Positions 1,804 to 31,989 of a stretch of DNA of 31,989 bases are shown here, in pieces. The stretch comes from a virus. Position 1 is the stretch's first letter; the number at the start of each line of letters is the position of its first letter. Both the position numbers and the translations under genes were made by a program. Where the stretch lies: the UHGV virus genome UHGV-0114034; one strand, 5' to 3'. The notes below the pieces were generated by a model. The model was given only the letters and a program-made list of their open reading frames with translations, was not told the DNA's origin and ran no database searches.

Positions 1804-1804
1804 G

Positions 1805-1996: not shown

Positions 1997-1997
1997 C

Positions 1998-2404: not shown

Positions 2405-2405
2405 G

Positions 2406-2869: not shown

Positions 2870-2885
2870 GATTAATTCCTCTTTG

Positions 2886-3200: not shown

Positions 3201-3211
3201 AGGCGATACCG

Positions 3212-5828: not shown

Positions 5829-5869
5829 CTCTGTTGTTTATGCCCAAAATAAAGGCCGACTATTCGGCC

Positions 5870-6037
5870 TTAAAATCCTGAATATTCGCGAAGAGATTCG
5901 ATAATTTCCTCGCAGTCGATAAGTAGTTCGTCAGGTTCATCTTCTCGATTTTTAAGTGCCTCAATGTTCCCAGCTAACTGGCGAAGCATCATTGCTTGCC
6001 ATTCAGGGTCGAAGCTGTCTGGTATTTCAATTTCCAT
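5870..6037 (-). CDS. small acidic hypothetical protein (55 aa)
   Basis: ATG at 6037; MEIEIPDSFDPEWQAMMLRQLAGNIEALKNREDEPDELLIDCEEIIESLREYSGF; stop overlaps hairpin AGGCCGA-CTAT-TCGGCCT (5853-5870). Confidence 0.3.
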   Translation of the reverse strand: MEIEIPDSFDPEWQAMMLRQLAGNIEALKNREDEPDELLIDCEEIIESLREYSGF

Positions 6038-6099
6038 ATTTCACCTCAAATAAGTGGTTTGCTGCCAAAACAATGAACCATCAGGAAATTCCAGATAGT

Positions 6100-6327
6100 T
6101 CATAATTCACTCTTCAATACTTCCAACTTACTAATCGCCGATAGATATCCGCGCTGATAGGGCATCATCATTCCTTCGAGCTTGCCACTTCTTAACTCCT
6201 CCCTGAGCAATTGTATTGCTTGATCAATAACCTCTGCCTTAGCGTCCTTTATGGCTTGCTTTCGGGGCTTTGCTTTCTGCTTTGGCAGATTTCTCAAGCA
6301 TGATGGAATGTATGTCTGATTCATCAC
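6100..6327 (-). CDS. hypothetical basic protein
   Basis: 75-aa ORF directly downstream of N in the pL operon. Confidence 0.4.
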   Translation of the reverse strand: MMNQTYIPSCLRNLPKQKAKPRKQAIKDAKAEVIDQAIQLLREELRSGKLEGMMMPYQRGYLSAISKLEVLKSEL

Positions 6328-6600
6328 TTACCTCGCTGTCAGTTGTTTTGATTTCCGGTAGCCTGCCGCGTAAAGAGCTACGTTTGGCAGGCAAATACTT
6401 CCACTGCATTCATCTGCCTTCTTGCAGCGAAGGCTTCCGAGTGATGCTGCTTTGTCTGCTCTGACGCAACCAGAGAGCTTTAGCGCAATTTTTCGCGCCA
6501 GTGCTTCATTACTGCGTCGCTCGGCAATAAGTTCTGCTCTGCGAGCTTTGTAGCGGCTTTTTGCCGTACCTTTGGATTCTTTCCAGACAATGGTTACCAT
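6328..6600 (-). CDS. N: N antitermination protein, phage-21-type arginine-rich motif
   Basis: Start at MVTIV (RBS AAAGGAG); N-terminal GTAKSRYKARRAELIAERR matches the phage 21 N ARM peptide as I recall it; first gene downstream of pL/nutL. Confidence 0.7.
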   Translation of the reverse strand: MVTIVWKESKGTAKSRYKARRAELIAERRSNEALARKIALKLSGCVRADKAASLGSLRCKKADECSGSICLPNVALYAAGYRKSKQLTAR

Positions 6601-6710
6601 GATGGTCTCCTTTAAGTGGCTTTGGCGCATGACGCGTCGAGGTGCTTATCTTCTCGATCGCTGTCTTGCAGCTGCAATTCGCGCCATCCCCAAAACCACT
6701 CAAGTTCTGG

Positions 6711-6751
6711 TCTCAACGGTTAGGTTGAGAGTTCGTCGATGTTAAAGAGCC
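6711..6751 (-). promoter_or_regulatory. nutL: boxA-like GCTCTTTAACA and boxB hairpin TCTCAACCTAACCGTTGAGA
   Basis: On minus strand between pL and N: boxA-like element then 7-bp stem with CUAACC loop, similar to nutR boxB at 9436-9454. Confidence 0.6.
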
Positions 6752-6789
6752 TGCCAATCTGTTCCTTGTGGCGTCTCAGCGTCCTGCTG

Positions 6790-6845
6790 ATGGAAATGAT
6801 AGTCACATATTGTGATTTAATGGTCAATCACAAAATGTGTAAAAT
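6790..6845 (-). promoter_or_regulatory. OL operators and pL promoter
   Basis: Palindromes TCACAtatTGTGA (6803-6815) and TCACAaaaTGTGT (6828-6840), same family as in OR; minus-strand TTGACC-17-GACTAT. Confidence 0.55.
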
Positions 6846-7076
6846 AAAGGTGTGACACGTTATGTGTATGATTTTTTTGTGTAAATAGTTTTACCCGCGA
6901 TGGTTTTGCTTACTTAAGTCGGTGGCAACAGCAGGATGGGTGCTGAAAAGTTCGAAAAACGAGCGAATGGGGTGGTGGCGAGATGGCGGGATATGGGAGT
7001 TGTATTAAGAATTATAGTAATTTAATCAATAGTTTGGACCGGCTGGCAGGTGTTGTCCTGATAGTGATCGGCGGGC

Positions 7077-7103
7077 AATAAAAAACCCGGCGCTGAGGCC
7101 GGG
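7077..7103 (-). terminator. rho-independent terminator ending the immunity-region accessory cassette
   Basis: Minus strand: hairpin CCCGGC-CUCAGC-GCCGGG followed by UUUUUUAUU. Confidence 0.6.
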
Positions 7104-7110
7104 TTGATGA

Positions 7111-7233
7111 TTAGCGGTGTGGCCTTGAGCGATAATGCTCACACACATGTTCAAGATTTCCATGCCTTATCCGTTCATAGGCATTCACATGAACTTCTCG
7201 ATCGAATTGGTCATTCAAATTGTATGTAGACAT
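7111..7233 (-). CDS. small hypothetical His/Cys-containing protein (40 aa)
   Basis: MSTYNLNDQFDREVHVNAYERIRHGNLEHVCEHYRSRPHR; stop 8 nt before terminator hairpin; weak RBS. Confidence 0.3.
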   Translation of the reverse strand: MSTYNLNDQFDREVHVNAYERIRHGNLEHVCEHYRSRPHR

Positions 7234-7406
7234 CTGTGTTTTCTCATATTGGCGGCAGCCCTACAACCGCTTGAAAAAATGTACCAGACGCGCTAAGGTT
7301 ACATCGCAAATATTGTGTACCTTAACAAGGGCTCCTTTTGGAGGCTCTGGTTAAACAGCATCAATGTCGGACTGGGGAGTTGGACATTGTGCTGAATGCT
7401 TTTGCA

Positions 7407-7928
7407 TTATTGAGGCCGAACGTAAACCTTCAGAATTGAAGAGATGCGTTCGGCTTCTTCGTTTGTGATATCGTTAGGAATGCCTTTAATCGTTACTGTA
7501 ACCCCTGATTCAGGTCGAAGAACTACTGGAAGATCATAGGTATGAAGTGCATTAGCCTTGCCTTCGACTTTTGTTGGTTCGCCAGTCAAATCTTTTTCCT
7601 CACTGGATTCTTTGTCAATCGGAGTGTATGGGATTTCTTCACCAGACTGGAAAGCTACAAACTTTTTGATTGCACTTTCCATGCGGCTTTTATATGCAGT
7701 AATGCTGCTGTCGCTAGGCTTCGGCTCAGTTGCGTTGATGTATCGCTCGGCAAGCTCATTCACATCAAGCTGAGTAACATCACCCATTTCCTCTTCTTGG
7801 ACTACCGTTAAGAGGCGAGCGGATGAGTTTTTTAAATTTCGAGCGGTGGCCTCCTTCATTATGTTCAGCGACATAAGCTCTTCAAGGAAGTCCTTGAATG
7901 CCTGCACGCTAACGTTTGACTTTGCCAT
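7407..7928 (-). CDS. hypothetical acidic protein, immunity-region moron (rexAB-equivalent position)
   Basis: 173-aa ORF between cI and OL on the cI strand with own promoter-like element (7961-7989) and flanking terminators; no recognisable motif. Confidence 0.6.
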   Translation of the reverse strand: MAKSNVSVQAFKDFLEELMSLNIMKEATARNLKNSSARLLTVVQEEEMGDVTQLDVNELAERYINATEPKPSDSSITAYKSRMESAIKKFVAFQSGEEIPYTPIDKESSEEKDLTGEPTKVEGKANALHTYDLPVVLRPESGVTVTIKGIPNDITNEEAERISSILKVYVRPQ

Positions 7929-7960
7929 TTGCTCTCTCTCTAAGTTATTGACTCAGATCG

Positions 7961-8002
7961 AGTTTATCCAGGAATTGATTTGCATGCAAGACTCAAGTCT
8001 TG
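7961..8002 (-). promoter_or_regulatory. putative sigma70 promoter with overlapping palindromes for the accessory cassette
   Basis: Minus strand TTGCAT-17-TAAACT; palindromes CAAGACT-ca-AGTCTTG (7987-8002) and TCTTGA-n10-TCAAGA adjacent to the -35. Confidence 0.35.
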
Positions 8003-8030
8003 AGAATTTCCGTTCAAGATCCACTCTCAA

Positions 8031-8055
8031 TAAAAAAGGCCGCACCTCTGCGACC
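8031..8055 (-). terminator. rho-independent terminator downstream of cI
   Basis: Minus strand: GGUCGCA-GAGG-UGCGGCC hairpin followed by UUUUUUAUU. Confidence 0.6.
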
Positions 8056-8429
8056 TTTCATCTCCTAAATCTCTTTTCTCTTACCTAAAGAAACAGCAGG
8101 CTGGGTCAGCCCTAACAACTTCAAGTGCATCGGTCAGAGAAAGCTCCGTGCTATACAGGTGTTATTTCATATCTTTTTGCATCCAATAAATTTTCCATCT
8201 GTCCAGAGAGCTGATGCACTTGATTCTTGTTGATGGCAGGACGTTTTTTCACCTGCCTCACCCTGCCATACAGGACGCTGCTCACCGATATCTATTGTCC
8301 GGTCATTGATGTTATAGACAATATCCAGATCATTACGGATATACTCAGATGGCCTTATGCTTTCAATGAATAGATGAACTTCTTTTTGACCGCGTGATAC
8401 TCATGGCCATTAAACTCCATCTATCCTCT

Positions 8430-9077
8430 TCACCCAAACGTCTCTTCAGGCCACTGCGCCTTAACTACCTTGCCTATGATGCGGCAGCTATGGTCGCAAT
8501 CCAGGGTTCTATATGCCGGGTTTAAAGGTACCAGGTAACTAACCCCTGCATCCTTCTCATACTTCTTGAACGTTGCCTCTGAATCACCATTTGCAGAAGC
8601 CACGCAGAAATCCCCAGACTCTACCGGCTCAGCCGGATCAACGAGTATCAGCATGCCTTCCGGAAAACTTGGACGAACCCCCTGAGGCGCCGTCATTGAA
8701 TGCCCCTTCACCTCAAGCCAGAAAGCTTTTTCGCTGGCTTTTGTGGTCGTTGGGACCCATGCCTTTGCATCGCTGGCTGTGTAGCTTCCCACCTCCGAAA
8801 ATGGCCCAGCCTGCACTGAAGAAAATAACGGGTATTCATATTGGCGAAATACGGCGTCTGAATCCTCGCCAAACATTATTTTTGCCGGAGATACGCCGAG
8901 TGCCGCCCCAAGAACCAGCGCGTCATCCGCGCTAACCTTTCTTGTTCCTAACTCGTAGTTCCCCAGGCGTGAAGGCGCAGCCCAGCCGCAAAGCTTGGCC
9001 AATTGAGCCTGGCTAAGTCCTTTAGCTTCTCTAAGGGACTTGATCCTTTCCCCGATAATTTCATGCATCGTTTTCAT
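8430..9077 (-). CDS. cI: CI-type prophage repressor (HTH plus S24 LexA-like peptidase domain)
   Basis: N-terminal HTH ([22 protein letters not shown]) and C-terminal S24 autocleavage domain (KGHSM); divergent from cro across operators. Start may be the second ATG at 9068 (AAGGGA 8 nt upstream). Confidence 0.85.
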
Positions 9078-9083
9078 CCCTTA

Positions 9084-9170
9084 AATGTAACACGCAACGT
9101 GATTGAACTCTGTACACGAATTGAGGTTGACTGTTAATCACAAATTGTGTGTAATGGGTGTGTGATTAAT
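9084..9170. promoter_or_regulatory. OR operators with divergent pR (rightward) and pRM (leftward)
   Basis: TCACAaatTGTGT palindrome (9137-9149) plus TGTGTGATTAA repeat; pR candidate TTGACT(9127-9132)-17-TGTAAT. Confidence 0.55.
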
Positions 9171-9185
9171 GCTAGGGAGACCGAA

Positions 9186-9404
9186 ATGAACAAAATTGCC
9201 CAGCAGCGAAAAAAAATCGGAGTTTCGCAAGCTGTACTAGCTTCGGCAATTGGTTGGGGGCAATCCCGCATCGCCAACTATGAGCTGAATATCCGTACTC
9301 CTGGCCTTAACGATTGCCGAATGATCGTAGAAGGCCTCAGGAAGTTAGGGTGCCAATGTTCTTTGGATGATGTTTTCCCTCCATCCAGTAACAAAGCCGC
9401 CTAA
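9186..9404 (+). CDS. cro: Cro-like repressor (HTH)
   Basis: 72 aa from MNKIAQQ (RBS GGGAGA); HTH GVSQAVLASAIGWGQSRIANYE; first gene of pR operon. Confidence 0.7.
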   Translation: MNKIAQQRKKIGVSQAVLASAIGWGQSRIANYELNIRTPGLNDCRMIVEGLRKLGCQCSLDDVFPPSSNKAA

Positions 9405-9412
9405 GCAGTACC

Positions 9413-9454
9413 CGCTCTTTAACAGTCATGGCCTTTCACCTCTAACCGGGTGAG
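9413..9454 (+). promoter_or_regulatory. nutR: boxA CGCTCTTTAACA and boxB hairpin TTCACCTCTAACCGGGTGA
   Basis: boxA near-identical to lambda consensus CGCTCTTACACA; boxB stem TCACC/GGTGA with CUAACC-containing loop, as recalled for phage 21. Confidence 0.7.
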
Positions 9455-9521
9455 CAAACATCAGCGGCAAATCCATTGGGTGTGCCTCTATAACTCAATA
9501 TCAATATAGGAAAATTAACAA

Positions 9522-9818
9522 ATGGCACAAGCAAGTTATAGCAAGCCAACACAGCGAGAAATTGATCGCGCTGAAACTGATTTACTCATCAACCTGTCAA
9601 CGCTTACCCAGCGCGGTCTGGCAAAGATGATTGGCTGTCATGAATCGAAGATAAGCAGAACGGACTGGAGATTTATTGCTTCGGTCTTGTGTGCTTTTGG
9701 AATGGCATCAGACATCAGTCCGATTAGCAGGGCTTTTAAGTATGCGCTTGATGAAATCACAAAGAAAAAATCCCCGGCCGCCACCGAGGATTTTAAGCAA
9801 ATTGATATGCAATTCTGA
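9522..9818 (+). CDS. cII: CII transcriptional activator
   Basis: 98 aa; C-terminus KKKSPAATEDFKQIDMQF parallels lambda CII KKRPAATERSEQIQMEF; position after cro/nutR. Confidence 0.75.
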   Translation: MAQASYSKPTQREIDRAETDLLINLSTLTQRGLAKMIGCHESKISRTDWRFIASVLCAFGMASDISPISRAFKYALDEITKKKSPAATEDFKQIDMQF

Positions 9819-9850
9819 GGTCATTACTGGATCAATCCACAGGAGTCATT

Positions 9851-10696
9851 ATGACAAATACAGCAAAAATACTCAACTTCGGCAGAGGTAACTTTGCCGA
9901 ACAGGAGCTAAGAGTGGCTGATATCGATGATGGTTACACCAGATTCGCTAACGAGCTGCTGGAAGCTATCGCAAGTGCCGATTTAACCGCTCGCCAGTTG
10001 AAAGTTATGCTGGCCTACGTCCGGAAAACATATGGCTTCAATAAGAAAACAGATCGAATAGCCGATGAGCAAATTGCTCAGTTAACAGGACTGTCAAGGC
10101 AGAATGTTAACAAGGCTAAAAAAGAACTGATTTCAATGAATTGCCTGTTTATGGATGGAAATCAAATCGGTGTAAACAGGGAGGTATCTGCGTGGCAATT
10201 CAGCAAGTGTCTCCAAGTTAGCAACTTTGTCTCGAAGTTAGAGACACTCAATGTCTCGAAGTTAGAGACACTCAATGTCTCGAAGTTAGAGACACACAAA
10301 AGACATTCTTTAAAGACAAAAGAAAATATTAATAAACCCCCTATATCCCCCAAAAAAGTTTCTCAGAAGTTCGACCCGCTAGAAACAGAGTTGCCTGATT
10401 GGTTATCAGCAGAAACATGGTTGTCGTGGGTTACCTATCGCAAGGAGATAGGTAAGTCGATCAAGTCTAAGCAAAGTGTCACTCAGGCTATCAACGTTCT
10501 AAGCAGAAGTCTGGAGAAGGGATATACACCTGAAGAAATTATAAACCAGAGCATCGCCAGTGGTTGGCAGGGGATTTTTGAGCCCAAGACTCCAAAGGGG
10601 AAATCTCAACCGAGGCCGCAGCATCGAGCTATGCAGGAAAACTTTGCCACCAAAGATTACGGACAAACTGAAATGCCTTCATGGGCGCAGGAGTGA
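9851..10696 (+). CDS. O: replication initiator O
   Basis: N-terminus MTNTAKILNFGRGNFAEQELRVADIDDGY closely matches lambda O; in-gene iterons encode repeated VSKLETLN peptide. Confidence 0.8.
   Translation: MTNTAKILNFGRGNFAEQELRVADIDDGYTRFANELLEAIASADLTARQLKVMLAYVRKTYGFNKKTDRIADEQIAQLTGLSRQNVNKAKKELISMNCLFMDGNQIGVNREVSAWQFSKCLQVSNFVSKLETLNVSKLETLNVSKLETHKRHSLKTKENINKPPISPKKVSQKFDPLETELPDWLSAETWLSWVTYRKEIGKSIKSKQSVTQAINVLSRSLEKGYTPEEIINQSIASGWQGIFEPKTPKGKSQPRPQHRAMQENFATKDYGQTEMPSWAQE
10207..10300 (+). repeat. ori iterons: about four ~24-bp direct repeats (GTCTCGAAGTTAGAGACACTCAAT) followed by AT-rich segment
   Basis: Two perfect and two degenerate tandem copies inside O, then AT-rich 10300-10360; lambda-type ori architecture. 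Confidence 0.7.
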
Positions 10697-10698
10697 AC

Positions 10699-11544
10699 AT
10701 GACGCTGGATGAAAAGATCTCCCAACTGGAGAAAAAACTTGCAGAATTGAGTTCTCCGCCAATTGCTATCGAGCATACATCTGTAGAAATTGGCACTGGC
10801 ATCTGTGAAAAACATGGTGAGTTTGAGCAGCGTAACCGTTACTCGACTGGGCCAATTAAGTTTGCCTCAAGACCTAGCGAATGCCCGGAATGCATGAGAG
10901 ATAAGCTTATTCGGCTACAGGCAGAGAAGATTAAAATCGACGAGGAATCACGTAAGCGCAATGTCGAGTTTCTGTTGAATAATCTTGATATTCCTGAACG
11001 ATTCAAGGGTTGCACACTACAGAACTACGAGCCAGTCAACGACGATGCAAAGAGAGTGCTCAGGGTGTGTCAGGCATACGCCAGCAAATGGCCTGAGAGG
11101 TTACAGAAAGGCGGTGGGCTGGTTATGTGTGGAAAGCCTGGTACTGGAAAGAATCATCTTGCACTGGCTATCGCCCGGCACGCAATTACGGAACATCAAA
11201 GCTCAGCTATTTTCACAACGGCGCTGAAAATTGCCAGAGAATATAAATCAACATGGTCGAAAAACTCCACCCGCACAGAGGATGAAGTGATCCGACAGTT
11301 CACTAAACCTGACCTGCTAATTATCGATGAGGTTGGTGTGCAGTTTGGAAGCGAGGCGGAAAAGATGATCATGTTCGAAATCATCAACACCCGCTACGAG
11401 TGCATGAAGCCAACAATCCTGATTAGCAACCAGAGCAAAGATGAACTGTCTGCATTCATTGGTGAGCGTGTTATTGACAGGATGAATGATGGCGGCGGGT
11501 GCACTCTTGCGTTTACATGGGATAGTTACAGGAGCAGATCGTGA
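10699..11544 (+). CDS. DnaC/IstB-family helicase loader (P-position replication protein)
   Basis: Walker A GKPGTGKNHLA and Walker B LLIIDEVG; start at MTLDEK; overlaps O stop. Confidence 0.8.
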   Translation: MTLDEKISQLEKKLAELSSPPIAIEHTSVEIGTGICEKHGEFEQRNRYSTGPIKFASRPSECPECMRDKLIRLQAEKIKIDEESRKRNVEFLLNNLDIPERFKGCTLQNYEPVNDDAKRVLRVCQAYASKWPERLQKGGGLVMCGKPGTGKNHLALAIARHAITEHQSSAIFTTALKIAREYKSTWSKNSTRTEDEVIRQFTKPDLLIIDEVGVQFGSEAEKMIMFEIINTRYECMKPTILISNQSKDELSAFIGERVIDRMNDGGGCTLAFTWDSYRSRS

Positions 11545-11831
11545 CTGGAAAAGAAATCATCCTGGAATATCTGAAAACTCATGAACAATTCTCCCCACAT
11601 GAATTAGCACTGATCACCGGAATACCAAATAACAGAATCGCTCAAGCAGCAAGGCATATGGTGAAACAAGGACATTTGAGTGTTGTTGAGCGTAAGTGGA
11701 AGACGGTTATTTATGCAAAGCGCAAAGTGAAGAAGGAGCCAATTAAAAGAAATCCAGATGGTACGGGGTGGGGATGTGCAAATCCAATGACGGCGTTTAT
11801 TAATAGGGCGCTTATGGAGGTAAGGCAATGA
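11541..11831 (+). CDS. ren: Ren-like protein
   Basis: N-terminus MTGKEIILEYLKTHEQF parallels lambda Ren MTGKEAIIHYLGTHNSF; position after P. Confidence 0.5.
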   Translation: MTGKEIILEYLKTHEQFSPHELALITGIPNNRIAQAARHMVKQGHLSVVERKWKTVIYAKRKVKKEPIKRNPDGTGWGCANPMTAFINRALMEVRQ

Positions 11832-11857
11832 CCATCTACATCACTGAGCTAATAACA

Positions 11858-11887
11858 GGGGCTATTTACACAGTAGCCCTTTTTTAT
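11858..11887 (+). terminator. rho-independent terminator after ren
   Basis: GGGCUA-n9-UAGCCC hairpin followed by UUUUUUAUU. Confidence 0.5.
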
Positions 11888-11912
11888 TGGATTAAGAACG
11901 AGGGGGATCCTG

Positions 11913-12125
11913 ATGGACACCGTTAACGGAATGTGTTCAGACGCACCGCGTGCCAAAAAATGTAAATGCGGAAAATCACCGACAATATTCGACATGGAGA
12001 GCGGGTGCCAAATCTACTGCGCTAACCACGCCGCTGTGGCGGCCGCGAATTATCGCAGTGCGGTAACGGAGTGGAATAACCTGAAATCTGTTAGAGAGGG
12101 AAGTCATGAAAAAACTGACCTTTGA
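11913..12125 (+). CDS. hypothetical Cys-rich protein (possible zinc ribbon)
   Basis: 70-aa ORF with RBS GAGGGGG; CKCGK...CQIYC cysteine pairs. Confidence 0.45.
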   Translation: MDTVNGMCSDAPRAKKCKCGKSPTIFDMESGCQIYCANHAAVAAANYRSAVTEWNNLKSVREGSHEKTDL

Positions 12126-12522
12126 AATTCGATCTCCAGCACATCAGCAAAACGCTATTCACGCAGTACAGCAAATCCTTCCAGACCCAACCAAACCAAT
12201 CGTAGTAACCATTCAGGAACGCAACCGCAGCATTCGGCAAAATGCACGCCTTCACGCGATGCTATCTGAAATAAGTAAGAAGGCTACATATCATGGAAAA
12301 GCAAGAAATATTGAGTTTTGGAAGGGGTTATTCGTTTCTGGTTGGCAGATTGCAACCAACCAGCACCCTGAGATTATATCAGGGTTAGAAGGTGAGCTAA
12401 TAAACATCAGAGAGAGTACGGCGACTCTATCTGTAAAAAAAATATCCGAAATAATGGACTACATAGAAGCATATTGTGCCATGAACTCAATTCATCTTAG
12501 CGAATGGAGGAATTATGATTGA
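12106..12522 (+). CDS. ninB: NinB (Orf-family recombination mediator)
   Basis: First ~40 aa (MKKLTFEIRSPAHQQNAIHAVQQILPDPTKPIVVTIQERNRS) match lambda NinB as recalled; C-terminal part divergent. Confidence 0.8.
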   Translation: MKKLTFEIRSPAHQQNAIHAVQQILPDPTKPIVVTIQERNRSIRQNARLHAMLSEISKKATYHGKARNIEFWKGLFVSGWQIATNQHPEIISGLEGELINIRESTATLSVKKISEIMDYIEAYCAMNSIHLSEWRNYD

Positions 12523-13117
12523 GGTTTGGGTAGATATCGAAGGAATTCCATTTTATCAGGTTAGCAATAAAGGGAATTTCAGGTCTATTACGAGGGAAAT
12601 TACAGTAACATCAACCAGACAGAGGCCATATAAGAAAATAATTAATGGCACTAGCGTAAAACCATTCAAGTGCAAGTCGACAGGATATCTTCAAATAAAG
12701 GTATACGGTAAGAAATACAGCGCACACAGGATAGTTGCGAAAGCATTCTGTACAGGGTTCTGTGATGGCTTGGTAGTTAATCACAAAAATGGGCAAAGAG
12801 ATGACAATAGGGCTGAAAACCTTGAATGGGTATCACATTCTGAAAACTCAAAGCACGGATATAAACAAAATGGAAGAATACCTATATCGCTAGGTAAATT
12901 TAGTGGTGATCATCCTGCCAGTAAAGCTGTTATTTCTACTGACATGAAAACTGGGGAGGAGGTTTATTATGAAGCAGCTATGGATGCTGTCAGAGAAGGA
13001 TTTGATAGTTCGTCAATTAGTCGTTGCTGTAATGGCGAAAGCTCATATCACAAAGGAAGATTCTGGCGATTTGCAAATGAAACAATGAAAGCGCGATGGG
13101 GAGACAGGGCGGCATGA
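12515..13117 (+). mobile_element. HNH homing endonuclease gene (NUMOD4 plus HNH_3-like) inserted at ninB 3' end
   Basis: 200-aa ORF: WVDIEGIPFYQVSNKGNFRS and VVNHKNGQRDDNRAENLEWVSHSEN motifs; last residues KARWGDRAA match the lambda NinB C-terminus. Confidence 0.7.
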
Positions 13118-13290
13118 GACGACAGCGACGAAGTTTCACCGACATCATCTGCGAAAACTGCAATTACCTTCCAACGAAACGCTCCAGAAATAAATCCAAG
13201 CCAATCCCAAAAGAATCTGACGTAAAAACCTTCAATTACACGGCTCACCTGTGGGATATCCGGTGGCTAAGACATCGTGCGAGGAAATGA
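13114..13290 (+). CDS. NinE-like (or NinD-like) small nin-region protein
   Basis: 58 aa [27 protein letters not shown]...; overlaps HNH stop (ATGA). NinE versus NinD assignment is by recall and uncertain. Confidence 0.55.
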
Positions 13291-13292
13291 CA

Positions 13293-13646
13293 ATGGATTA
13301 TTCACAGTTAAGTGATTTTGAAATTAACAGAATGGTAGGAGACATAATTTTTAAAGGCCTTTGGGCATGTAAACCGGAAACATCAGGGAATAACACCAAC
13401 AAATGGTATTACGGAAATGCTGATACAACTTTTGAGCCATTAAACCCTTTGCCTGACTACTGCAATGATCCTAGCGCCTCATGGCCGATTATTGAGAAGT
13501 ACAGGATTAGCATCATCAATCTCGATGAAGACGAGTGGGGTGCACGTGGTGTGGCCGACTGTAAATCTAAGCGAGCTATACATGAAAATTCCCTCCGCGC
13601 CGCCATGATTGTCTTTCTCATGATGCAGGACGCCAATAATGCTTAG
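13293..13646 (+). CDS. NinX-like (DUF2591-like) protein
   Basis: 117 aa from MDYSQLSDFEINR; family call by recall only. Confidence 0.4.
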   Translation: MDYSQLSDFEINRMVGDIIFKGLWACKPETSGNNTNKWYYGNADTTFEPLNPLPDYCNDPSASWPIIEKYRISIINLDEDEWGARGVADCKSKRAIHENSLRAAMIVFLMMQDANNA

Positions 13647-13815
13647 CCCATCCCAATCCCTTCAATACCAGAAAGAAAGCGTCGAGCGGGCTTTAACGTG
13701 CGCTAACTGCGGTCAGAAGCTGCATGTGCTGGAAGTTCACGTGTGTGAGCACTGCTGCGCAGAACTGATGAGCGATCCGAATAGCTCAATGTACGAGGAA
13801 GAAGACGATGAGTGA
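13639..13815 (+). CDS. ninF: NinF
   Basis: 58 aa MLSPSQSLQYQKESVERALTCANCGQKLHVLEVHVCEHCCAELMSDPNSSMYEEEDDE, near-identical to lambda NinF as recalled. Confidence 0.7.
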   Translation: MLSPSQSLQYQKESVERALTCANCGQKLHVLEVHVCEHCCAELMSDPNSSMYEEEDDE

Positions 13816-14020
13816 TTACCTGAAATGGTATCTCTGCCACCGCTGGTTAATTAAGTTTGCTGTAAAAGACTGGATGACAGCGGATGCCAACAAGCTTAAG
13901 CAAAGAAAGGACTATTACTACGCCAGAATGAAGGAAAACTACTGCTCAATTCGCACTCGCATATTTATTAAAAAAGACCTTCAGTCAATTCTTCAATTGC
14001 GAGGGAAGGTAAATGGCTAA
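13808..14020 (+). CDS. hypothetical protein
   Basis: 70-aa ORF with overlapping start/stop coupling in the nin operon. Confidence 0.4.
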   Translation: MSDYLKWYLCHRWLIKFAVKDWMTADANKLKQRKDYYYARMKENYCSIRTRIFIKKDLQSILQLRGKVNG

Positions 14021-14303
14021 CCTACGCAAAGAAGCGCGCGGCAGAGAATGCCAGGTTCGTATTTACGGCATATGCAATGGCAATCCTGAAACTACAGTTC
14101 TGGCACATTACCGGATGGCTGGAATTTGCGGAACTGGAATGAAGCCTGACGACCTGATCGGTGCATGGGCTTGTAGTGACTGCCACGCGGAGATCGACCG
14201 ACGCACCCATAATCTCGACAACAAAGACGCCAGACTTTACCACCTCGAAGGCGTAATCAGGACGCAGGCGATACTGCTGAAGGAGGGGAAGATTAAGCCA
14301 TGA
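14013..14303 (+). CDS. YbcO-like (DUF1364) putative zinc-dependent nuclease
   Basis: 96 aa MANLRKEARGRECQVRIYGICNGNPETTVLAH...; sits directly upstream of rusA as in DLP12-type nin regions. Confidence 0.55.
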   Translation: MANLRKEARGRECQVRIYGICNGNPETTVLAHYRMAGICGTGMKPDDLIGAWACSDCHAEIDRRTHNLDNKDARLYHLEGVIRTQAILLKEGKIKP

Positions 14304-14662
14304 ACGAATATCAGTTTGTGCTTCCATACCCGCCGTCGGTGAACACCTACTGGCGAAGACGGGGAAGCCAATACTACATCAGCGATAAAGGCCAGAAATA
14401 CCGAAAAGACGTTCAGCAAATCATCCGCCAACTCAAGTTAGACATTTTCACCAAATCACGACTCCGCATCAAAGTCATCGCAGACGTTCCAGACTCCCGC
14501 CGCCGCGACCTCGATAACATCCTGAAAGGTTTACTCGATTCCCTTATCCACGCCGGATTTGCGGAAGACGACGAGCAATTCGATGACATTCGCGTAATTC
14601 GTGGTGTGAAAGTACCAGGCGGACGGCTTGGAATAAAAATCACCGAACTGGAGAACGCATGA
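14300..14662 (+). CDS. rusA: RusA Holliday-junction resolvase
   Basis: 120 aa; RRRDLDNILKGLLDSLIHAGF and GGRLGIKITE motifs parallel E. coli RusA. Confidence 0.85.
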   Translation: MNEYQFVLPYPPSVNTYWRRRGSQYYISDKGQKYRKDVQQIIRQLKLDIFTKSRLRIKVIADVPDSRRRDLDNILKGLLDSLIHAGFAEDDEQFDDIRVIRGVKVPGGRLGIKITELENA

Positions 14663-14847
14663 ACGCCACAATTCAAACGATACCAGAGCTTCTTATCCAG
14701 ACACGAGGCAATCAGACCGAAGTGGCGAGGATGCTTTCCTGCGCAAGAGGAACAGTGCTCAAGTACAACCGAGACAGCAAAGGCGATCGTCACGTAATAG
14801 TTAACGGCGTCCTGATGGTCAAACAGGGAAAGAGGGGAAGACGATGA
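14659..14847 (+). CDS. ninH: NinH-like protein
   Basis: 62 aa; GNQTEVARMLSCARGTVLKY matches lambda NinH core GNQTEVARRLKCSRGTVRKY. Confidence 0.6.
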   Translation: MNATIQTIPELLIQTRGNQTEVARMLSCARGTVLKYNRDSKGDRHVIVNGVLMVKQGKRGRR

Positions 14848-15362
14848 GCATAAGAGAACTAAACCTCACCAAAGAGCAGCACGAGTGGCTGAATGGCTGG
14901 CTTGAACTGTGGGGCGCATGGGTTTATTCAGGTCGTCTTGAAAAGCGCATGAGCAGCGTAATAGCGAAGTTCATGGAGAGCGTAGAGCCGGGAAGAGTTA
15001 TGACAAGGCCAATGTGCAATGATGATGATGGAATGTTGATTTCTCAGGTCGTCGATTCTGTCATGTGCATTGACAAGAAAGCCTTTGGCATCCTCCTCAG
15101 CTACTACGCTCATGGTTCATCTAAGCGAGCAATTGCATCCTACTATCACGCGACTGCAAAGCCACGCAAGATGTGTGGACGCGGTGGCGAGGGATGGAGA
15201 AAACCTTCACTGGCAACCTGTAGAAACGAAATTGACGATATCCTGAAAGCGTCATTATTTGTTTTGTACCAACCAATGCAAAATGCTTTCAAAATGCGTA
15301 AACGTGTTGAGAAAGTTAAGCATGTTGCTGTCAAAATCCTTGACATGCAATTAGCCATTTAG
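14844..15362 (+). CDS. Q: late antiterminator Q (phage 82/21 QuuD-like type)
   Basis: 172 aa; WGAW and RPMCNDDDGMLI motifs as in 82-type Q proteins; last nin-operon gene upstream of pR' and lysis genes. Confidence 0.65.
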   Translation: MSIRELNLTKEQHEWLNGWLELWGAWVYSGRLEKRMSSVIAKFMESVEPGRVMTRPMCNDDDGMLISQVVDSVMCIDKKAFGILLSYYAHGSSKRAIASYYHATAKPRKMCGRGGEGWRKPSLATCRNEIDDILKASLFVLYQPMQNAFKMRKRVEKVKHVAVKILDMQLAI

Positions 15363-15370
15363 CCATAATT
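15340..15370 (+). promoter_or_regulatory. pR'-like late promoter
   Basis: TTGACA (15340-15345), 18-bp spacer, CATAAT (15364-15369), overlapping the 3' end of Q. Confidence 0.5.
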
Positions 15371-15378
15371 AGAAGGTA

Positions 15379-15424
15379 AGCTGCCGTTAGTGACTCTTAA
15401 GTTGCAACGGTAGCTTTTTTTATT
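15379..15424 (+). terminator. tR'-like rho-independent terminator
   Basis: AAGCUGCCGUU ... AACGGUAGCUU hairpin followed by UUUUUUAUUU. Confidence 0.55.
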
Positions 15425-15425
15425 T

Positions 15426-15500
15426 GGGTCAGTCGTATAAAGGTCATTACGGAAGGCTGTTAACCTTCTTATCGTGGTTCGAGTCCACGCTGTCCCGCCA
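15426..15500 (+). tRNA. tRNA-Asn (anticodon GTT), one acceptor-stem mismatch
   Basis: Hand-folded 75-nt cloverleaf: perfect anticodon stem GAAGG/CCTTC, loop CTGTTAA, T-arm CGTGG-TTCGAGT-CCACG, discriminator G, encoded CCA. Confidence 0.6.
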
Positions 15501-15505
15501 AACAT

Positions 15506-15581
15506 GCTGGTTTAGCTCCAATGGTAGAGCGGTCGCCTTGTAAGCGAATGGGTAGCGGTTCAAGTCCGTTAACCAGCACCA
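15506..15581 (+). tRNA. tRNA-Thr (anticodon TGT)
   Basis: Hand-folded 76-nt cloverleaf: acceptor GCTGGTT/AACCAGC, D-arm GCTC-CAATGGTA-GAGC, anticodon loop CTTGTAA, discriminator A, encoded CCA. Confidence 0.6.
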
Positions 15582-15823
15582 TAACTGAGCCGTAGCCACT
15601 GGCTATCCTGAATTCATCAGTGATAGTTACGCTGCGGCCTTCTACGCATGACCTTCGTGAAAGCGGGTGGCATGAGGTTGCCCTAACAACCTCCTGCCGT
15701 TTTGCCCGTGCATATCGGTCACGAACAAATCTGATTACTAAACACAGTAGCCTGGATTTGTTCTATCAGTAACCGACCATATTCCTAATTAAATAGAGCA
15801 AATCCCCTTATTGGGGGTAAGAC

Positions 15824-27273: not shown

Positions 27274-29694
27274 ATGGCTTCCAAATCACTGGGCACGCTG
27301 ACGATCGACCTGATTGCCAAAGTGGGCGGTTTTGTCTCAGGCCTCTCGCAGGCTGAGCGAGCTTCACAAAAATGGCGTAAGCAGGTAAAGGAGGATGCCG
27401 CTGCCGCTGCAGCTGCCATGACCGGATTCGCAACAGCAGTCGGGGCTGCAGCCATCGGAGCCGGAGTGGCGGGGTATAACCTGCTCAAAACCACTTCACG
27501 TCAGATTACCGAATCAGACCGCTGGGCAAAGTCACTTAACATGTCCACGCAGTCCCTGTTAGCCTGGCAATATGCTGCAGAAAAAGCAGGTGTTTCCGGC
27601 GATCAGATGGCCGATATCTTTAAAGATGTCGGAGACAAAATCGGTGATGCCGTTCTTAATAAATCTGGTGAGGCGGTCGGTGCGCTGGACGCTCTGGGTT
27701 TGTCGGCTAAGAAACTGGCCGGAGAATCTCCCGACAAGCAACTCCTGGCTATCAGCGACGCACTGGAGAAAGTTAAGTCCAACGCCGAGAAGACTACCAT
27801 CCTGGAGAGTCTGGGTAATGACCTGTCAAAGATGCTGCCGCTCCTGGACAATGGCAGTGAAAAGCTGCGTCAGTATATGGATGCCGCGAAGAAGTTTGGT
27901 GTGGCGCCCGATGACGCAGATATTGAAAAGCTGGTCAGAGTCAACGCCCTGTTTGAGGATATGGAGACGCAGGTCAACGGCGTCAAAATTGAACTTGCTG
28001 CAGGGCTCGCCAGCGTAGATTTGAGTGGGCTCCAGAAGTCTATTGGAGATATGGGGGATGTATTTAAAGACCCGGCTGTTATTCAGGGTCTGACTGATCT
28101 GGTTGGTGGGGTAGTGGACCTTGCCACCTGGCTGGTAAGGGTAGGAGCCGAGGCCGGAAAGCTGATAGACCAGTACAAAGGTGGGAGTTCGGTCGGCCTG
28201 AATGCCTCCATTCCAGAAATTGAACGGCGCATCAAGAACCTGAATGCAGATCTCGATGATAAAGGCATACTGGCGAGTTTCAACAGAATAGGTATGGACG
28301 TATCCGGTAAGGAGGCCGAAAGGGCTGAGCTCCAGAGGCGACTGGCCTTTTTGAGAAACTCCCAATCTACTCTACCGGAAATAAAACTGCCCGAGCCAGT
28401 CAAAACAAACTATACCCTTGGCGCCGGGGAAACAAACGGTAAGCCGCAAAAAAATACCTCTGGTCAGAAACTGGATTCAGCGTTTAAAAGCGCTGAGCGC
28501 AGTTACATGCGTCAGATTGAGCTGATCGATACCACCGGCAAAAAAACTGCTGTGGTGACCGAGCAGCAAAAACTGCAGTTCGATATAGCTGACGGCAAGT
28601 TGCAGGGGCTTAACGAAACCCAGAAGAAACGACTTGCGTCTCTGGCTCAGGAAGTTGATCGCCTTAATGCCGTCAAAAAAGCTAATGAAGAAAACGCGAA
28701 GGTAGCGGCGTTCGTGGCAAATCTGCAGGAGCAGAACGAGAATGCACGTGCAGATTTGGGCGTGGATATTCAGGGGGCCGGACTCGGTGACAAGCAGCGT
28801 GAAAGGCTGAGGGAAAGGCTGAGTATAGAGCGCAGTTATCTCGATCAGCAGCGCGATCTGCAAAAGCAGTATCAGTCAGGAGATATCAGCCAGACAGTTT
28901 ATGACCGCGAAACCCAGGCATTAAAGGATGCGCAAGCTGAGAGGCTGGGCATCCAGGAGGATTATTACAGTCAAATTGATGCGCTGCAGTCTGACTGGGT
29001 GACTGGCGCCAGAGACGGTCTCGCTGACTGGGTAGATGATTCAACTAACTATGCGACGCTGGCGGCGGACGCTATGAAAAGCGCGCTTTCCGGTATCAGC
29101 AGCAATATCGTCGACATGCTCAACGGCAATAAAGCGAGCTGGAAAGACTGGGGTGTCAGTGTTCTGAAAATCATCGAACAGGTGATGGTTAACATGATGA
29201 TCGCCAATGCAGCCAGCTCGATAGGCTCATTGTTCGGTGGTGCCGCATCGTCTTCCGCCAGCAGCGGTACTGCGATTCAGTCCTACGGGGCGAGCCTGCA
29301 ATTCAACGCCAAAGGCGGCGTTTACTCTTCTGCCGATCTCAGTCAGTACAGTAACTCTGTCGTCAGCTCTCCAACACTGTTTGCCTTTGCCAAAGGGGCC
29401 GGATTGATGGGGGAGGCTGGGCCGGAGGCTATTATGCCACTGACCCGCGCCGCTGACGGATCGCTGGGCGTGCGTGCTATGGGAATCTCAGGCTTAACAC
29501 CGGGTGGTAGTAGTGCTCCTCAGGTCAGTATTCAGATTGATGGCAATGGGAATACCCAGACTCAGGCTAGCGGTGGATATGAGCAATTCGGGCGGGAGGT
29601 AGGTAGTTTTGTTGATCGGCGATACCGCGAGTTGATAGGCCGTGACCTTTCACCCGGTGGCGCGGTCTGGAATCTGGCAAAAGGAGGGCGGTGA
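27274..29694 (+). CDS. tail tape measure protein
   Basis: 806-aa coiled-coil-rich ORF with Gly/Ala-rich and hydrophobic segments, after G/GT. Confidence 0.85.
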   Translation: MASKSLGTLTIDLIAKVGGFVSGLSQAERASQKWRKQVKEDAAAAAAAMTGFATAVGAAAIGAGVAGYNLLKTTSRQITESDRWAKSLNMSTQSLLAWQYAAEKAGVSGDQMADIFKDVGDKIGDAVLNKSGEAVGALDALGLSAKKLAGESPDKQLLAISDALEKVKSNAEKTTILESLGNDLSKMLPLLDNGSEKLRQYMDAAKKFGVAPDDADIEKLVRVNALFEDMETQVNGVKIELAAGLASVDLSGLQKSIGDMGDVFKDPAVIQGLTDLVGGVVDLATWLVRVGAEAGKLIDQYKGGSSVGLNASIPEIERRIKNLNADLDDKGILASFNRIGMDVSGKEAERAELQRRLAFLRNSQSTLPEIKLPEPVKTNYTLGAGETNGKPQKNTSGQKLDSAFKSAERSYMRQIELIDTTGKKTAVVTEQQKLQFDIADGKLQGLNETQKKRLASLAQEVDRLNAVKKANEENAKVAAFVANLQEQNENARADLGVDIQGAGLGDKQRERLRERLSIERSYLDQQRDLQKQYQSGDISQTVYDRETQALKDAQAERLGIQEDYYSQIDALQSDWVTGARDGLADWVDDSTNYATLAADAMKSALSGISSNIVDMLNGNKASWKDWGVSVLKIIEQVMVNMMIANAASSIGSLFGGAASSSASSGTAIQSYGASLQFNAKGGVYSSADLSQYSNSVVSSPTLFAFAKGAGLMGEAGPEAIMPLTRAADGSLGVRAMGISGLTPGGSSAPQVSIQIDGNGNTQTQASGGYEQFGREVGSFVDRRYRELIGRDLSPGGAVWNLAKGGR

Positions 29695-30032
29695 TGGCTA
29701 TAGAAACATTCAGCTGGTGTCCGCGCCCGAACGCGGAGCAGGAAGTGACATTCCGACGGCGCACCGCGCAGTTCGGTGACGGATATCAGCAGGTTTCCGG
29801 CGACGGGATTAATCCCCGCTCGCAGAAATGGACTCTCCAGTTTACCGGTACCGAAACGTATATCGGGGCGATTAAAGACTTTCTCGATCGCCATGCGGGC
29901 GTGACGGCGTTTCAGTGGCGCCCGCCGCTTGAGCCTCTCGGGCTTTACCGCTGCGACACCTACACACCAACGCCACTTGGTGCCGGGTTATTTAATCTTT
30001 CTGCAACTTTTGAACAGGCCTACAAACCATGA
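29691..30032 (+). CDS. minor tail protein M-like
   Basis: 113 aa; FGDGYQQ motif parallels lambda M FGDGYSQ. Confidence 0.7.
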   Translation: MMAIETFSWCPRPNAEQEVTFRRRTAQFGDGYQQVSGDGINPRSQKWTLQFTGTETYIGAIKDFLDRHAGVTAFQWRPPLEPLGLYRCDTYTPTPLGAGLFNLSATFEQAYKP

Positions 30033-30784
30033 GTCTTAACGCAGATTTTCAGAAGCTCGAACCTGGCGATGTGGTCAGGCTTTTCGAAGTGGATGGCACG
30101 GCATTTGGTACAGGTGATGTGCTGCGATTTCACAGCTACAGTCTTGCGCACTCTGAAGCCGAAATTATCGCTGCTGGCGGTGATGAAAATAAACTGCCAG
30201 CAAAATCTATCTGGTGGCAGGGTGAGGAGTATAAAGCGTGGCCATGCCAGATTGAGGGGATCGAAGCTTCAACCTCGGGAAGTAGTGCCCAGCCAAAACT
30301 TTCGGTTGCTAACCTCGACAGTTCGATCACCGCGCTTTGCCTGGCTTACGACGATATGCTGCAGGCGAAGGTGACGATACATGACACCCTTGGTAAGTAT
30401 CTCGATGCGAGAAACTTCACCGGAGGCAATCCGACAGCCGATCCGACCCAGGAGAAGCTGAAGGTTTTCTACATCGATGCAAAGAGCAGTGAAACCAATG
30501 AAGTTGTTGAGTTCACACTATCCAGCCCTATGGATCTGCAGGGGCTGATGATACCTACCCGCCAGCTTCATTCTCTGTGCACATGGTGCATCCGGAACAA
30601 GTACCGAACCGGCGACGGCTGCGACTATGCCGGTACGCGCTATTTCGACAAAAACAACAACCAGGTAAGCGATCCGTCACTGGATGAATGCAACGGAACG
30701 CTGACGGCCTGCAAACTTCGGTTCGGTGAAAACAACGAACTCTCGTTTGGTGGGTTCCCGGGTACGTCGCTGATCAGGAGTTGA
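30029..30784 (+). CDS. minor tail protein L-like (Fe-S cysteine cluster)
   Basis: 251 aa; C-terminal cysteines CTWC...C..C and final FGGFPG motif like lambda L. Confidence 0.75.
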   Translation: MSLNADFQKLEPGDVVRLFEVDGTAFGTGDVLRFHSYSLAHSEAEIIAAGGDENKLPAKSIWWQGEEYKAWPCQIEGIEASTSGSSAQPKLSVANLDSSITALCLAYDDMLQAKVTIHDTLGKYLDARNFTGGNPTADPTQEKLKVFYIDAKSSETNEVVEFTLSSPMDLQGLMIPTRQLHSLCTWCIRNKYRTGDGCDYAGTRYFDKNNNQVSDPSLDECNGTLTACKLRFGENNELSFGGFPGTSLIRS

Positions 30785-30785
30785 T

Positions 30786-31496
30786 ATGCGTCAGAAAACC
30801 ATCGATGCGATTATGGCGCATGCTGCAGCTGAATATCCTCGTGAGTGTTGCGGCGTGGTGGCGCAAAAGAGCCGGGTAGAGAAATATTTTCCATGTAGTA
30901 ACCTCGCTACCGAGCCGACAGAACATTTTCACCTGTCGCCAGAAGACTATGCAGCTGCTGAGGACTGGGGTACGGTGATCGCCATCGTTCACAGTCACCC
31001 TGACGCCACTACGCAGCCGAGCGAACTGGATAAAGCGCAATGCGACGCAACGCTTTTACCCTGGCATATTGTGAGCTGGCCGGAGGGGGATTTACGCACC
31101 ATCCAGCCGCGCGGAGAACTGCCACTGCTGGAGCGTCCGTTTGTGCTTGGACACTTCGACTGCTGGGGGCTGGTAATGAGCTATTTCCGGCAAACGCATG
31201 GTATCGAGCTCCACGATTACCGGGTGGATTATCCCTGGTGGGAAAACGACTATCCGGACAACTTCTATCAGGATTGCTGGTATGAGTGCGGATTCCGTGA
31301 ATTCGACGGGCCACCGAAACCCGGCGATATGGTGATCATGCAGGTCCAGGCTGATAAGTGGAATCACGCGGGAATCCTGCTGGAGGGCAATATGCTGCTG
31401 CACCACCTGTATGGACATCTGAGCCAGCGTGTGCCGTATGGTGGCTACTGGCAGGAAAGGACGATGAAGGTTCTACGTTACAAATCTCTGTGCTAA
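30786..31496 (+). CDS. tail assembly protein K-like (JAB/MPN plus NlpC/P60 domains)
   Basis: 236 aa; N-terminal HSHP JAB-type motif, C-terminal Cys/His NlpC/P60-like region. Confidence 0.8.
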   Translation: MRQKTIDAIMAHAAAEYPRECCGVVAQKSRVEKYFPCSNLATEPTEHFHLSPEDYAAAEDWGTVIAIVHSHPDATTQPSELDKAQCDATLLPWHIVSWPEGDLRTIQPRGELPLLERPFVLGHFDCWGLVMSYFRQTHGIELHDYRVDYPWWENDYPDNFYQDCWYECGFREFDGPPKPGDMVIMQVQADKWNHAGILLEGNMLLHHLYGHLSQRVPYGGYWQERTMKVLRYKSLC

Positions 31497-31525
31497 CCTT
31501 TTGTAAAACCAAAGGGGATAGGGAT

Positions 31526-31939
31526 ATGAAAAGAATTTTAGTTTTTACCTCCATCTTAATGGTTGCCGGTTGTGCAACTAAGCCGGTGACAAATGAACAA
31601 GCACAGGATGTTCCTGCAAAACAGGTTATCAGCAATACACTGCTAGTTAAAAAAGAAGGGACTGGCAAGGTAATAATCAAACGAGACTCTGGTTTTATGG
31701 GCAGCGCCTGCATGACCCGAGTTTATGTTGATGGCAAGGAGGTCGCAGACTTAGACACAGCTCAAAAGGTAACGGTCTATCCCAAAATTGGAGATCATAT
31801 CTTTAGCGCTTGGCCCAAAGGTATGTGTGGCGGAGGCATGAGCGAACAGTCGGGTAAGGTGACAGATACTGGGGTATTGATGTTTAGAGTTGGTTACGGA
31901 ACCAACGGTGATTTTGGTATCTACCCTACAGCATTGTAA
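31526..31939 (+). CDS. predicted lipoprotein (moron after gene K)
   Basis: 137 aa from MKRILVFTSILMVAGC (signal peptide plus lipobox VAGC); RBS AAGGGGATAGGG; AT-richer than flanking tail genes. Confidence 0.6.
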   Translation: MKRILVFTSILMVAGCATKPVTNEQAQDVPAKQVISNTLLVKKEGTGKVIIKRDSGFMGSACMTRVYVDGKEVADLDTAQKVTVYPKIGDHIFSAWPKGMCGGGMSEQSGKVTDTGVLMFRVGYGTNGDFGIYPTAL

Positions 31940-31989
31940 GCGTCGTCTGAGTACCGTCTGGTCCCGAATCCAGGATCCTGTAACTTAAG

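Follow-up and report, generated by a model that had tools for sequence, protein, structure and literature searches.

Cor, the FhuA blocker of the phi80/N15/HK022/mEp167 type, and Llp of T5 are small outer-membrane lipoproteins whose phage genes belong to the tail or receptor-binding module or adjoin it, and both are tied to FhuA-using phages. Another accessory gene within the tail operon of an HK97/HK022-type phage is gp15 of HK97, whose product is an inner-membrane protein and not a lipoprotein. This gp15 moron functions in superinfection exclusion ('The moron comes of age', PMC3594210). In temperate mEpimmI coliphages, the lipoproteins Lpp021 and Lpp010 are encoded within the structural gene cluster, come in several exchangeable sequence types that correlate with receptor use (OmpA or LamB), and exclude phages when expressed from a plasmid (PMC11893012). 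Here, we analyzed a stretch of 31,989 nucleotides of the virus genome UHGV-0114034 (termed the window in the following), which is a lambdoid prophage with a mosaic genome, similar in type to HK022/mEp235/HK140 (Hendrixvirinae), and carries, downstream of the tail tip assembly gene K, a gene for a predicted lipoprotein of 137 amino acids that belongs to the family PHROG 890.

The gene resembles cor and llp in the kind of its product and in its place within the tail module, but there is no sequence relationship, and cor is located after J. Like HK97 gp15, it is an accessory gene within a tail operon, and some PHROG 890 homologues, such as that of Yersinia similis (L032), occupy a gp15-like position between tail chaperone and tape measure; no sequence relationship between the window lipoprotein and gp15 was detected. 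The mEpimmI lipoproteins track the receptor type, whereas the PHROG 890 lipoprotein does not. Homology to the mEpimmI type A lipoprotein (Lpp021) was considered and rejected, as the mEp021 genome was part of the searched collection and gave no tblastn match at E ≤ 0.01; as the presence of mEp010 (type C) in this collection was not verified, the rejection applies to type A only. Comparison with near-identical phages shows that the gene is an exchangeable, horizontally mobile accessory cassette of the K–I junction and not a tail component. The family is decoupled from the receptor end of J, and we tentatively favor a role in protecting lysogens against other phages.

A PHROG 890 lipoprotein gene between K and I

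Judged from its end-to-end match to PHROG 890 ("lipoprotein", category other; E 3.1e-51, 173.5 bits, residues 1–137 against profile positions 1–136 of 136) and from its many homologues, the open reading frame (ORF) is an intact gene and not a chance ORF. We found 108 close homologues with 45–99% identity, which are encoded in prophages of Enterobacter, Kluyvera, Citrobacter, Klebsiella, Salmonella, Yersinia, Xenorhabdus, Erwinia, and Vibrio. A profile search yielded representatives of 1,554 clusters at 50% identity, with E ≤ 1e-10 for 864, and nearly all family representatives are single-domain proteins of 135–145 amino acids. One Klebsiella variant alone was present in 1,326 indexed blocks of a contig collection. 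PHROG 890 is thus a large, unstudied family, whereas morons that encode lipoproteins are already familiar as a type of gene in lambdoid tail operons.

Coordinates, length, and the lipoprotein-type N-terminus were as originally predicted, and so was the ribosome-binding site of its own, since a Shine–Dalgarno (SD)-like AGGGGA lies 7 nt upstream of the start codon within the 29-nt gap to K. Bacterial lipoproteins (Lgt/LspA substrates) were recognized by a positively charged n-region, a hydrophobic h-region, and a lipobox [LVI][ASTVI][GAS]C with the cysteine within residues 15–35. The N-terminus (MKRILVFTSILMVAG, followed by the cysteine) agrees with this pattern, as the M-K-R n-region with K2 and R3 and the hydrophobic core ILVFTSILM are followed by the lipobox V-A-G-C16 and an alanine at position +2. 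In an alignment of 39 family members and in a broader one of 47, Cys16 does not vary, and G15 is at least 90% conserved. We predict that the product is exported and receives its lipid at Cys16, and that it is transferred to the outer membrane, the latter because position +2 is an alanine and not the aspartate of Lol avoidance. The match to the Pfam lipoprotein-signal family LPAM_1 remained below threshold (15.2 bits versus 20).

Residues that are invariant in the 39 sequences comprise C16, K52, R53, D54, G56, G59, C62, G99, C101, G103, R121, G123, Y124, and G125. The AlphaFold2 model is all-beta (predicted local distance difference test score, pLDDT, 90.1; predicted template modeling score, pTM, 0.83), and the mature part of about 121 amino acids is modeled as a confident but generic beta-sandwich that contains the two further conserved cysteines C62 and C101. 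Beyond sub-threshold lipoprotein-signal matches, no named family was matched in Pfam, NCBIfam, PADLOC, or the PDB sequences; the Pfam scan at E ≤ 1 returned LPAM_1 only and left the Bor family profile unmatched. Membership in DUF2846 (PF11008) was considered and rejected, as the window protein gave no match at E ≤ 1 and the best family member reached only 20.4 bits (E 5e-4) with a gathering threshold of 34.3. Like PHROG 890, DUF2846 comprises small secreted or lipoprotein beta-sandwich proteins, and several PHROG 890 members have weak sub-threshold matches to it over the first beta-strands (V-x-V-D-G ... G-x-H region). The function of DUF2846 is not known in the literature, so that this likeness adds no mechanism.

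The tail module of the window is about 99% identical to those of HK022, mEp235, HK140, and mEpX2, and homology ends near position 31474 in comparison with HK022 and mEp235 and near 31533 in comparison with HK140 and mEpX2. HK022 and mEp235 lack the gene, and HK140 and mEpX2 have an unrelated lipoprotein that starts at the same ATG. The respective HK140 protein, gp19, shares with the window the slot, the junction, the SD sequence, and the start of the signal peptide, but has 113 amino acids and an unrelated mature part, and it aligns over the signal peptide only (BLASTP E 3e-4). In HK022, the same slot after the about 99% identical K holds gp20, a 74-residue protein with a hydrophobic N-terminus that is not a lipoprotein and is unrelated to the window protein; gp20 is annotated as 'moron gene product', and the K–I slot is therefore already an annotated moron site in that phage. 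Homologues with 32–33% identity occupy the K–I slot of mEp390 and phage Fostie, and a 28% homologue is found between K and I in siphophages of P. aeruginosa. The junction sequence CCTTTTGTAAAACCAAAGGGGATAGGGAT is common to the window, HK140 with its unrelated lipoprotein, and mEp390 with its 32% homologue, with one T/C difference. In E. coli VREC0864, where a KilA-N gene stands between K and the lipoprotein gene, the 3' part of the junction moves with the cassette.

In a set of 80 IMG/VR loci, the gene lies downstream of K in 61 (gap 32–5,928 bp), right after the tape measure gene in 12, before it in 3 (next to the chaperone gene, where HK97 has the gp15 moron), and elsewhere in 4. Gene I begins 46–64 bp after the lipoprotein gene in 54 of the 61, and some loci contain cargo between K and the lipoprotein gene, either a KilA-N gene or a tail-fiber/esterase block. 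The gene also directly follows the tape measure gene in HK639, stands beside cI in Vibrio H20-like phages, is found at a prophage end in one locus (L030), and stands alone near a regulator on 568 plasmids, most of which are SSU5/pMT1-type phage-plasmids. As K–I pairs without any insert exist as well (lambda-type pLF82, mEp021), and as the gene takes so many placements, it is dispensable for tail assembly and horizontally mobile. Pfam, PHROG, and further searches revealed no homology to tail structural proteins, in agreement with the original prediction of an accessory and not a structural gene.

Morons in the Juhala/Hendrix sense are characterized by presence and absence, composition, an own promoter, a terminator, and prophage expression (PMC3594210). 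The gene is present or absent among near-identical phages, and its base composition is unlike that of the flanking tail genes. With a GC content of 0.444 (0.420 at third codon positions, GC3), it is indeed more AT-rich than the surrounding genes, as had been noted, since GC/GC3 values are 0.533/0.560 for H, 0.564/0.596 for M, 0.520/0.575 for L, and 0.546/0.612 for K. Compared to the whole stretch (GC 0.492), the value is not extreme: 22% of all 414-nt windows are equally low because the early region is AT-rich too. In this early/regulatory half (about 1400–15700), many 414-nt windows have a GC content of 0.46 or less, and low GC alone is no marker of foreign cargo in this prophage genome.

The IS66-family end of the gene

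The last codon and the stop codon of the gene are written by the end of an IS66-family insertion sequence (IS), which is a new detail. From 31480 to 31935, the window is 100% nucleotide-identical to an uninterrupted IMG/VR locus (L045), and the two sequences diverge from 31936 onward. The uninterrupted locus reads ACA GCA TTT TGA and continues with a terminator and gene I, whereas the window reads ACA GCA TT/G TAA GCG, which places the insertion point after the second base of the last codon. The last four bases of the ORF interval (31936–31939, GTAA) are thus IS66-family sequence and the last codon and stop are chimeric, with Phe137 being changed to Leu and TAA being provided as the stop codon. 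Phe137 is the near-invariant C-terminus of the family, with at least 90% conservation.

The assignment to IS66 was based on five unrelated insertion sites that share the sequence from GTAAGCG onward (GTAAGCGTCGTCTGAG), the same terminal sequence being present from GTAAGCGTC at all five, and on RefSeq tnpA, tnpB, and tnpC of the IS66 type. The gene tnpA starts about 80 nt past the window end (31989; the IS end corresponds to L007:8411–8536), and the right end of the element and the target-site duplication are outside the window as well. Of 5,426 complete E. coli genomes, 527 contain copies with 99–100% identity, which occupy 732 places in all.

The insertion displaces the terminator and separates I and J from the lipoprotein gene. 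All metagenome contigs encoding exactly this protein end about 120 nt after the gene, and the insertion explains both the absence of visible I and J genes and the assembly breaks at this site. The original statement that the gene is inserted where I and J usually follow directly is accordingly not visible in the window itself, in which only the IS66 end lies between 31936 and the last position. The tail operon is broken before I and J, and the prophage may be tail-defective.

Receptor specificity, expression, and possible role

A receptor blocker of the Cor or Llp type had been suggested originally. A lipoprotein that masks its own phage's receptor would be expected to track the receptor-binding C-terminus of J in its sequence type. 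We compared the identity of the mature lipoprotein with that of the conserved J N-terminus and of the last 250 amino acids of J in 42 loci with a complete J (861 pairs). The Spearman correlation was 0.63 for the N-terminus, which is expected because of physical linkage, and 0.22 for the C-terminal part. For the 78 pairs whose mature lipoproteins are at least 97% identical, the median J C-terminal identity was 34%, and 60% of these pairs were below 40%. The 99–100% relatives of the window protein adjoin several differing J C-termini (about five by eye). The expected tracking was therefore not observed. In addition, searches of Pfam and PHROG detected no homology to Cor, Llp, or Bor, PHROG 890 being the only PHROG match, and mEp390 carries both a PHROG 890 lipoprotein gene and a separate cor gene after J. 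A blocker that is matched to the phage's own receptor is disfavored by these comparisons, and this part of the original prediction was not supported.

With regard to expression, intact relatives have a strong intrinsic terminator 18–20 nt after the stop codon and immediately before I, with an 8-bp stem containing 5 GC pairs and a T-run; in the window, this terminator is displaced beyond the window end by the IS66-family element. A terminator before I fits the moron pattern, in which transcription in the prophage state is halted ahead of the late genes. An independent transcription unit, as implied by the term moron, was thus found by half, namely with the terminator in relatives and without a recognizable promoter in the window and three relatives. 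In the Vibrio phage Her (H20-like), a promoter-like site precedes cI, and the lipoprotein gene follows cI after 15 nt that include an SD sequence. A strong terminator closes this series, and nothing that resembles a terminator separates the lipoprotein gene from cI. This arrangement, which looks like a cI operon, is the clearest hint of lysogenic expression. Among published transcriptomes, we found none that covers a homologue. CYRAN_43 from LF82's phage-plasmid Cyrano, which is expressed 723-fold and is located close to the repressor, as is the case in Klebsiella SSU5-like plasmids, was considered as a candidate but is not a homologue, and there is no homologue in the 65 kb of pLF82/Cyrano that were examined.

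Genome and metagenome scans also revealed 35 distinct non-enteric loci with 39–54% identity, the hosts being Nitrosospira, Geomonas, Gallionella, Methylococcales, Deltaproteobacteria metagenome-assembled genomes (MAGs), Aquisalimonas, and Jiella. No recognizable K, I, or J was found at these 35 loci. At some of them, genes with similarity to defense systems lie within two ORFs of the homologue (Table 1), and DzbA, Mrr_cat_2, DUF4145, and a phage-type integrase were also found within this distance, at loci that could not be assigned. The genes around these non-phage homologues are suggestive of a defense-island or mobile-element setting, which we regard as a lead and not as proof.

Our tentative preference, held with less than even confidence, is that the protein is made in lysogens and provides envelope-level, receptor-independent protection against other phages. 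The lipoprotein would be expressed from the prophage in the lysogen, become lipid-anchored at Cys16, and be carried to the outer membrane, where it would probably act on an infection step that is conserved and takes place in the periplasm or at the outer membrane, and not by masking the receptor of its own phage. It could thereby work as a superinfection-exclusion moron without being a cognate blocker of the Cor/Llp type. Several points weigh against such a role. PADLOC-DB v2 contains no family that matches the lipoprotein at E ≤ 1, and we found no functional study in the literature on the family, H20-like Vibrio phages, mEp390, or Klebsiella prophage lipoproteins. A simple scan, which may miss weak or non-sigma-70 promoters, detected no upstream sigma-70 consensus promoter, either in the window or in the relatives L074, L006, and L045, and the gap to K is so short that the gene may just ride the late operon. 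The exchange of Phe137 at a near-invariant position together with the IS insertion could impair this particular copy. Finally, the defense association concerns only 5–7 of the 35 loci, many of them with less than 2 kb of flank and without a matched background control, and the neighbors were identified by raw PADLOC hidden Markov model matches, which are not system calls. A bolder generalization is possible but doubtful, namely that PHROG 890 is a widespread single-gene outer-membrane anti-phage factor and blocks a conserved step after adsorption (such as passage of the tail tip, the tape measure, or the DNA through the periplasm) whatever the receptor, and that it resides both as a lambdoid tail-operon cassette and in chromosomal defense islands beside SIR2-HerA, AbiG, Shedu, and restriction systems.

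The alternatives differ in what they ascribe to the family and to this copy. It is fairly unlikely, and compatible with protection by the family as a side hypothesis, that the family is functional but this copy is a decaying passenger, damaged by the F137L exchange, separated from I and J by a polar effect, and under no selection here. The position of the IS within the codon of a residue that is so strongly conserved, and the interruption of the tail operon ahead of I and J, would fit such decay, but the frame and the length of 137 amino acids are exactly kept, and the rest of the ORF is 100% nucleotide-identical to the uninterrupted relative, so that any decay would be very recent; moreover, this explanation is silent on the function of PHROG 890. 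Alternatively, the protein could be a Bor-like lipoprotein for host fitness or virulence that mediates lysogenic conversion, such as serum, antimicrobial-peptide, or stress resistance, and has no anti-phage role. We consider this unlikely: an outer-membrane-type lipoprotein in prophages and phage-plasmids of Klebsiella, Enterobacter, and Salmonella and on Yersinia pestis pMT1-type plasmids is what one would expect, and the place beside cI in Vibrio anguillarum phages suits any lysogen-expressed function, but the protein resembles neither Bor/Iss nor any Pfam family, and a host-interaction role leaves the homologues in free-living environmental bacteria and MAGs and those beside defense systems unexplained.

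A cognate Cor/Llp-type blocker would mask the receptor of its own phage's J, exclude homologous phages, and protect progeny from debris. The location in the tail-tip module, a short distance upstream of I and J, which links the gene to the receptor-binding gene as in the case of cor and llp, would suit this role, as would the alternative lipoprotein 'alleles' in the K–I slot and the precedent of the unrelated mEpimmI structural-cluster lipoproteins, which exclude by receptor type, OmpA or LamB (PMC11893012). The J comparison and the coexistence with cor in mEp390 make it quite unlikely, however, as do the unchanged motifs in hosts that range from Vibrio and Pseudomonas as far as Nitrosospira and Geomonas and do not share variable receptors, and the occurrence of family members outside tail modules. 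Very unlikely, in our view, is a lytic helper of the late operon that acts in tail-tip maturation with K and I or modulates peptidoglycan or the outer membrane at lysis. Such a helper would be compatible with the short gap to K on the same strand, the lack of a promoter consensus, and the constant 46–64 bp before I in 54 of the 80 viral loci, but the gene is dispensable, with K being followed by I directly or nearly so in HK022, mEp235, lambda-type pLF82, and mEp021, and relatives have a terminator between the lipoprotein gene and I. Furthermore, tail assembly takes place in the cytoplasm, whereas the lipid anchor shows no variation, and family members are also found next to cI, on plasmid backbones, and at non-phage loci. 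The protein might also be an inhibitor or immunity partner of the NlpC/P60 peptidase of K, which we mention as an idea only, as the gene also occurs away from K.

Tail-operon accessory genes are a main route by which prophages alter the host surface and phage sensitivity, and PHROG 890 is abundant in prophages of the clinically important Klebsiella, Enterobacter, Citrobacter, and Salmonella and in pMT1/SSU5-type phage-plasmids. If receptor-independent exclusion is true, it would have a bearing on the prediction of host ranges in phage therapy and would add a new envelope-level defense family; if it is not true, the locus is still a clean example of cassette exchange between K and I and of an IS that rewrites a last codon and stop. 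What is new is modest and consists of a large unstudied family, its decoupling from receptor specificity, non-phage members near defense systems, and the IS66-written end of the gene.

Feature coordinates and further observations

The window begins with an early region that extends to about 18.3 kb and is followed by the terminase, head, and tail genes. K, which defines the slot as the upstream neighbor, matches Prok-JAB (2.6e-21) and NLPC_P60 (6.9e-22) in Pfam and PHROG 30 (5.8e-134), and is about 99% identical to K of HK022, HK140, and mEp235. The coordinates of the features in the window and at related loci are compiled in Table 1.

Table 1. Positions of the lipoprotein gene, its surroundings, and selected features at loci of relatives (locus identifiers with L precede the coordinates outside the window)
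Feature	Location	Strand	Basis or remark
Lipoprotein ORF, PHROG 890	31526..31939	+	ORF call, full-length PHROG match, homologues, AlphaFold2 model; ATG 31526–31528, stop 31937–31939
Predicted signal peptide and lipobox, residues 1–16 (V13-A14-G15-C16)	31526..31573	+	Read from sequence; Cys codon 31571–31573; Ala at +2
K–lipoprotein junction with SD-like AGGGGA (31513–31518)	31497..31525	+	Sequence common to the junctions of relatives
Left terminal sequence of IS66-family element (GTAAGCGTCGTCTGAG...)	31936..31989	+	Shared insertion-site ends; continues beyond the window
Tail tip assembly gene K (JAB/MPN and NlpC/P60)	30786..31496	+	Pfam, PHROG
L	30029–30784		Pfam and PHROG
M	29691–30032		Pfam and PHROG
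Tape measure (H)	27274–29694		Pfam and PHROG
K–I junction, window	31497–31525
K–I junction, HK140	L004:7998–8411
K–I junction, HK022	L005:7998–8318
K–I junction, VREC0864	L006:6495–7729
K–I junction, Erwinia	L033:2832–9220
SIR2-HerA within two ORFs of homologue	L034:10790–14323		PADLOC 1e-159 and 2e-259
AbiGi within two ORFs of homologue	L035:6464–7204; also L157, L158		8e-52
HNH protein and Shedu SduA within two ORFs of homologue	L037:878–2630
Caspase/PDC-S65 protein within two ORFs of homologue	L156:221–1972		2e-49
Type IIG restriction-modification-like enzyme within two ORFs of homologue	L159:2671–6066		1e-151

The K–I junction is a cargo hotspot, as it contains nothing, HK022 gp20, HK140 gp19, KilA-N together with the lipoprotein, or about 5.9 kb with a tail-fiber/SASA-esterase gene. 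Fresh cargo enters between K and the lipoprotein gene, and the lipoprotein–terminator–I spacing stays at 46–64 bp. E. coli VREC0864 has a second intrinsic terminator right after K and before KilA-N (L006:6493–6510), so that its K–I slot comprises two terminator-bounded units in tandem. The terminator hairpin of the Vibrio phage Her (L003:6431–6448, AACCCGCTTCGGCGGGTTTTTT) is nearly the same as the one after HK140 gp19 (L004, about 8385–8410, AACCCGCTTCGGCGGGTTTTTTT) despite unrelated genes and hosts, which could be due to convergence on a UUCG-loop terminator or to a shared cassette boundary.

An enterobacterial-type M-L-K-lipoprotein-I-J block was also found in a contig of Limoniibacter endophyticus (L029, NZ_BMZO01000013.1; Alphaproteobacteria/Hyphomicrobiales), with K being 86% and the lipoprotein being 73% identical to the window. 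This block is probably due to assembly contamination rather than to a host jump.

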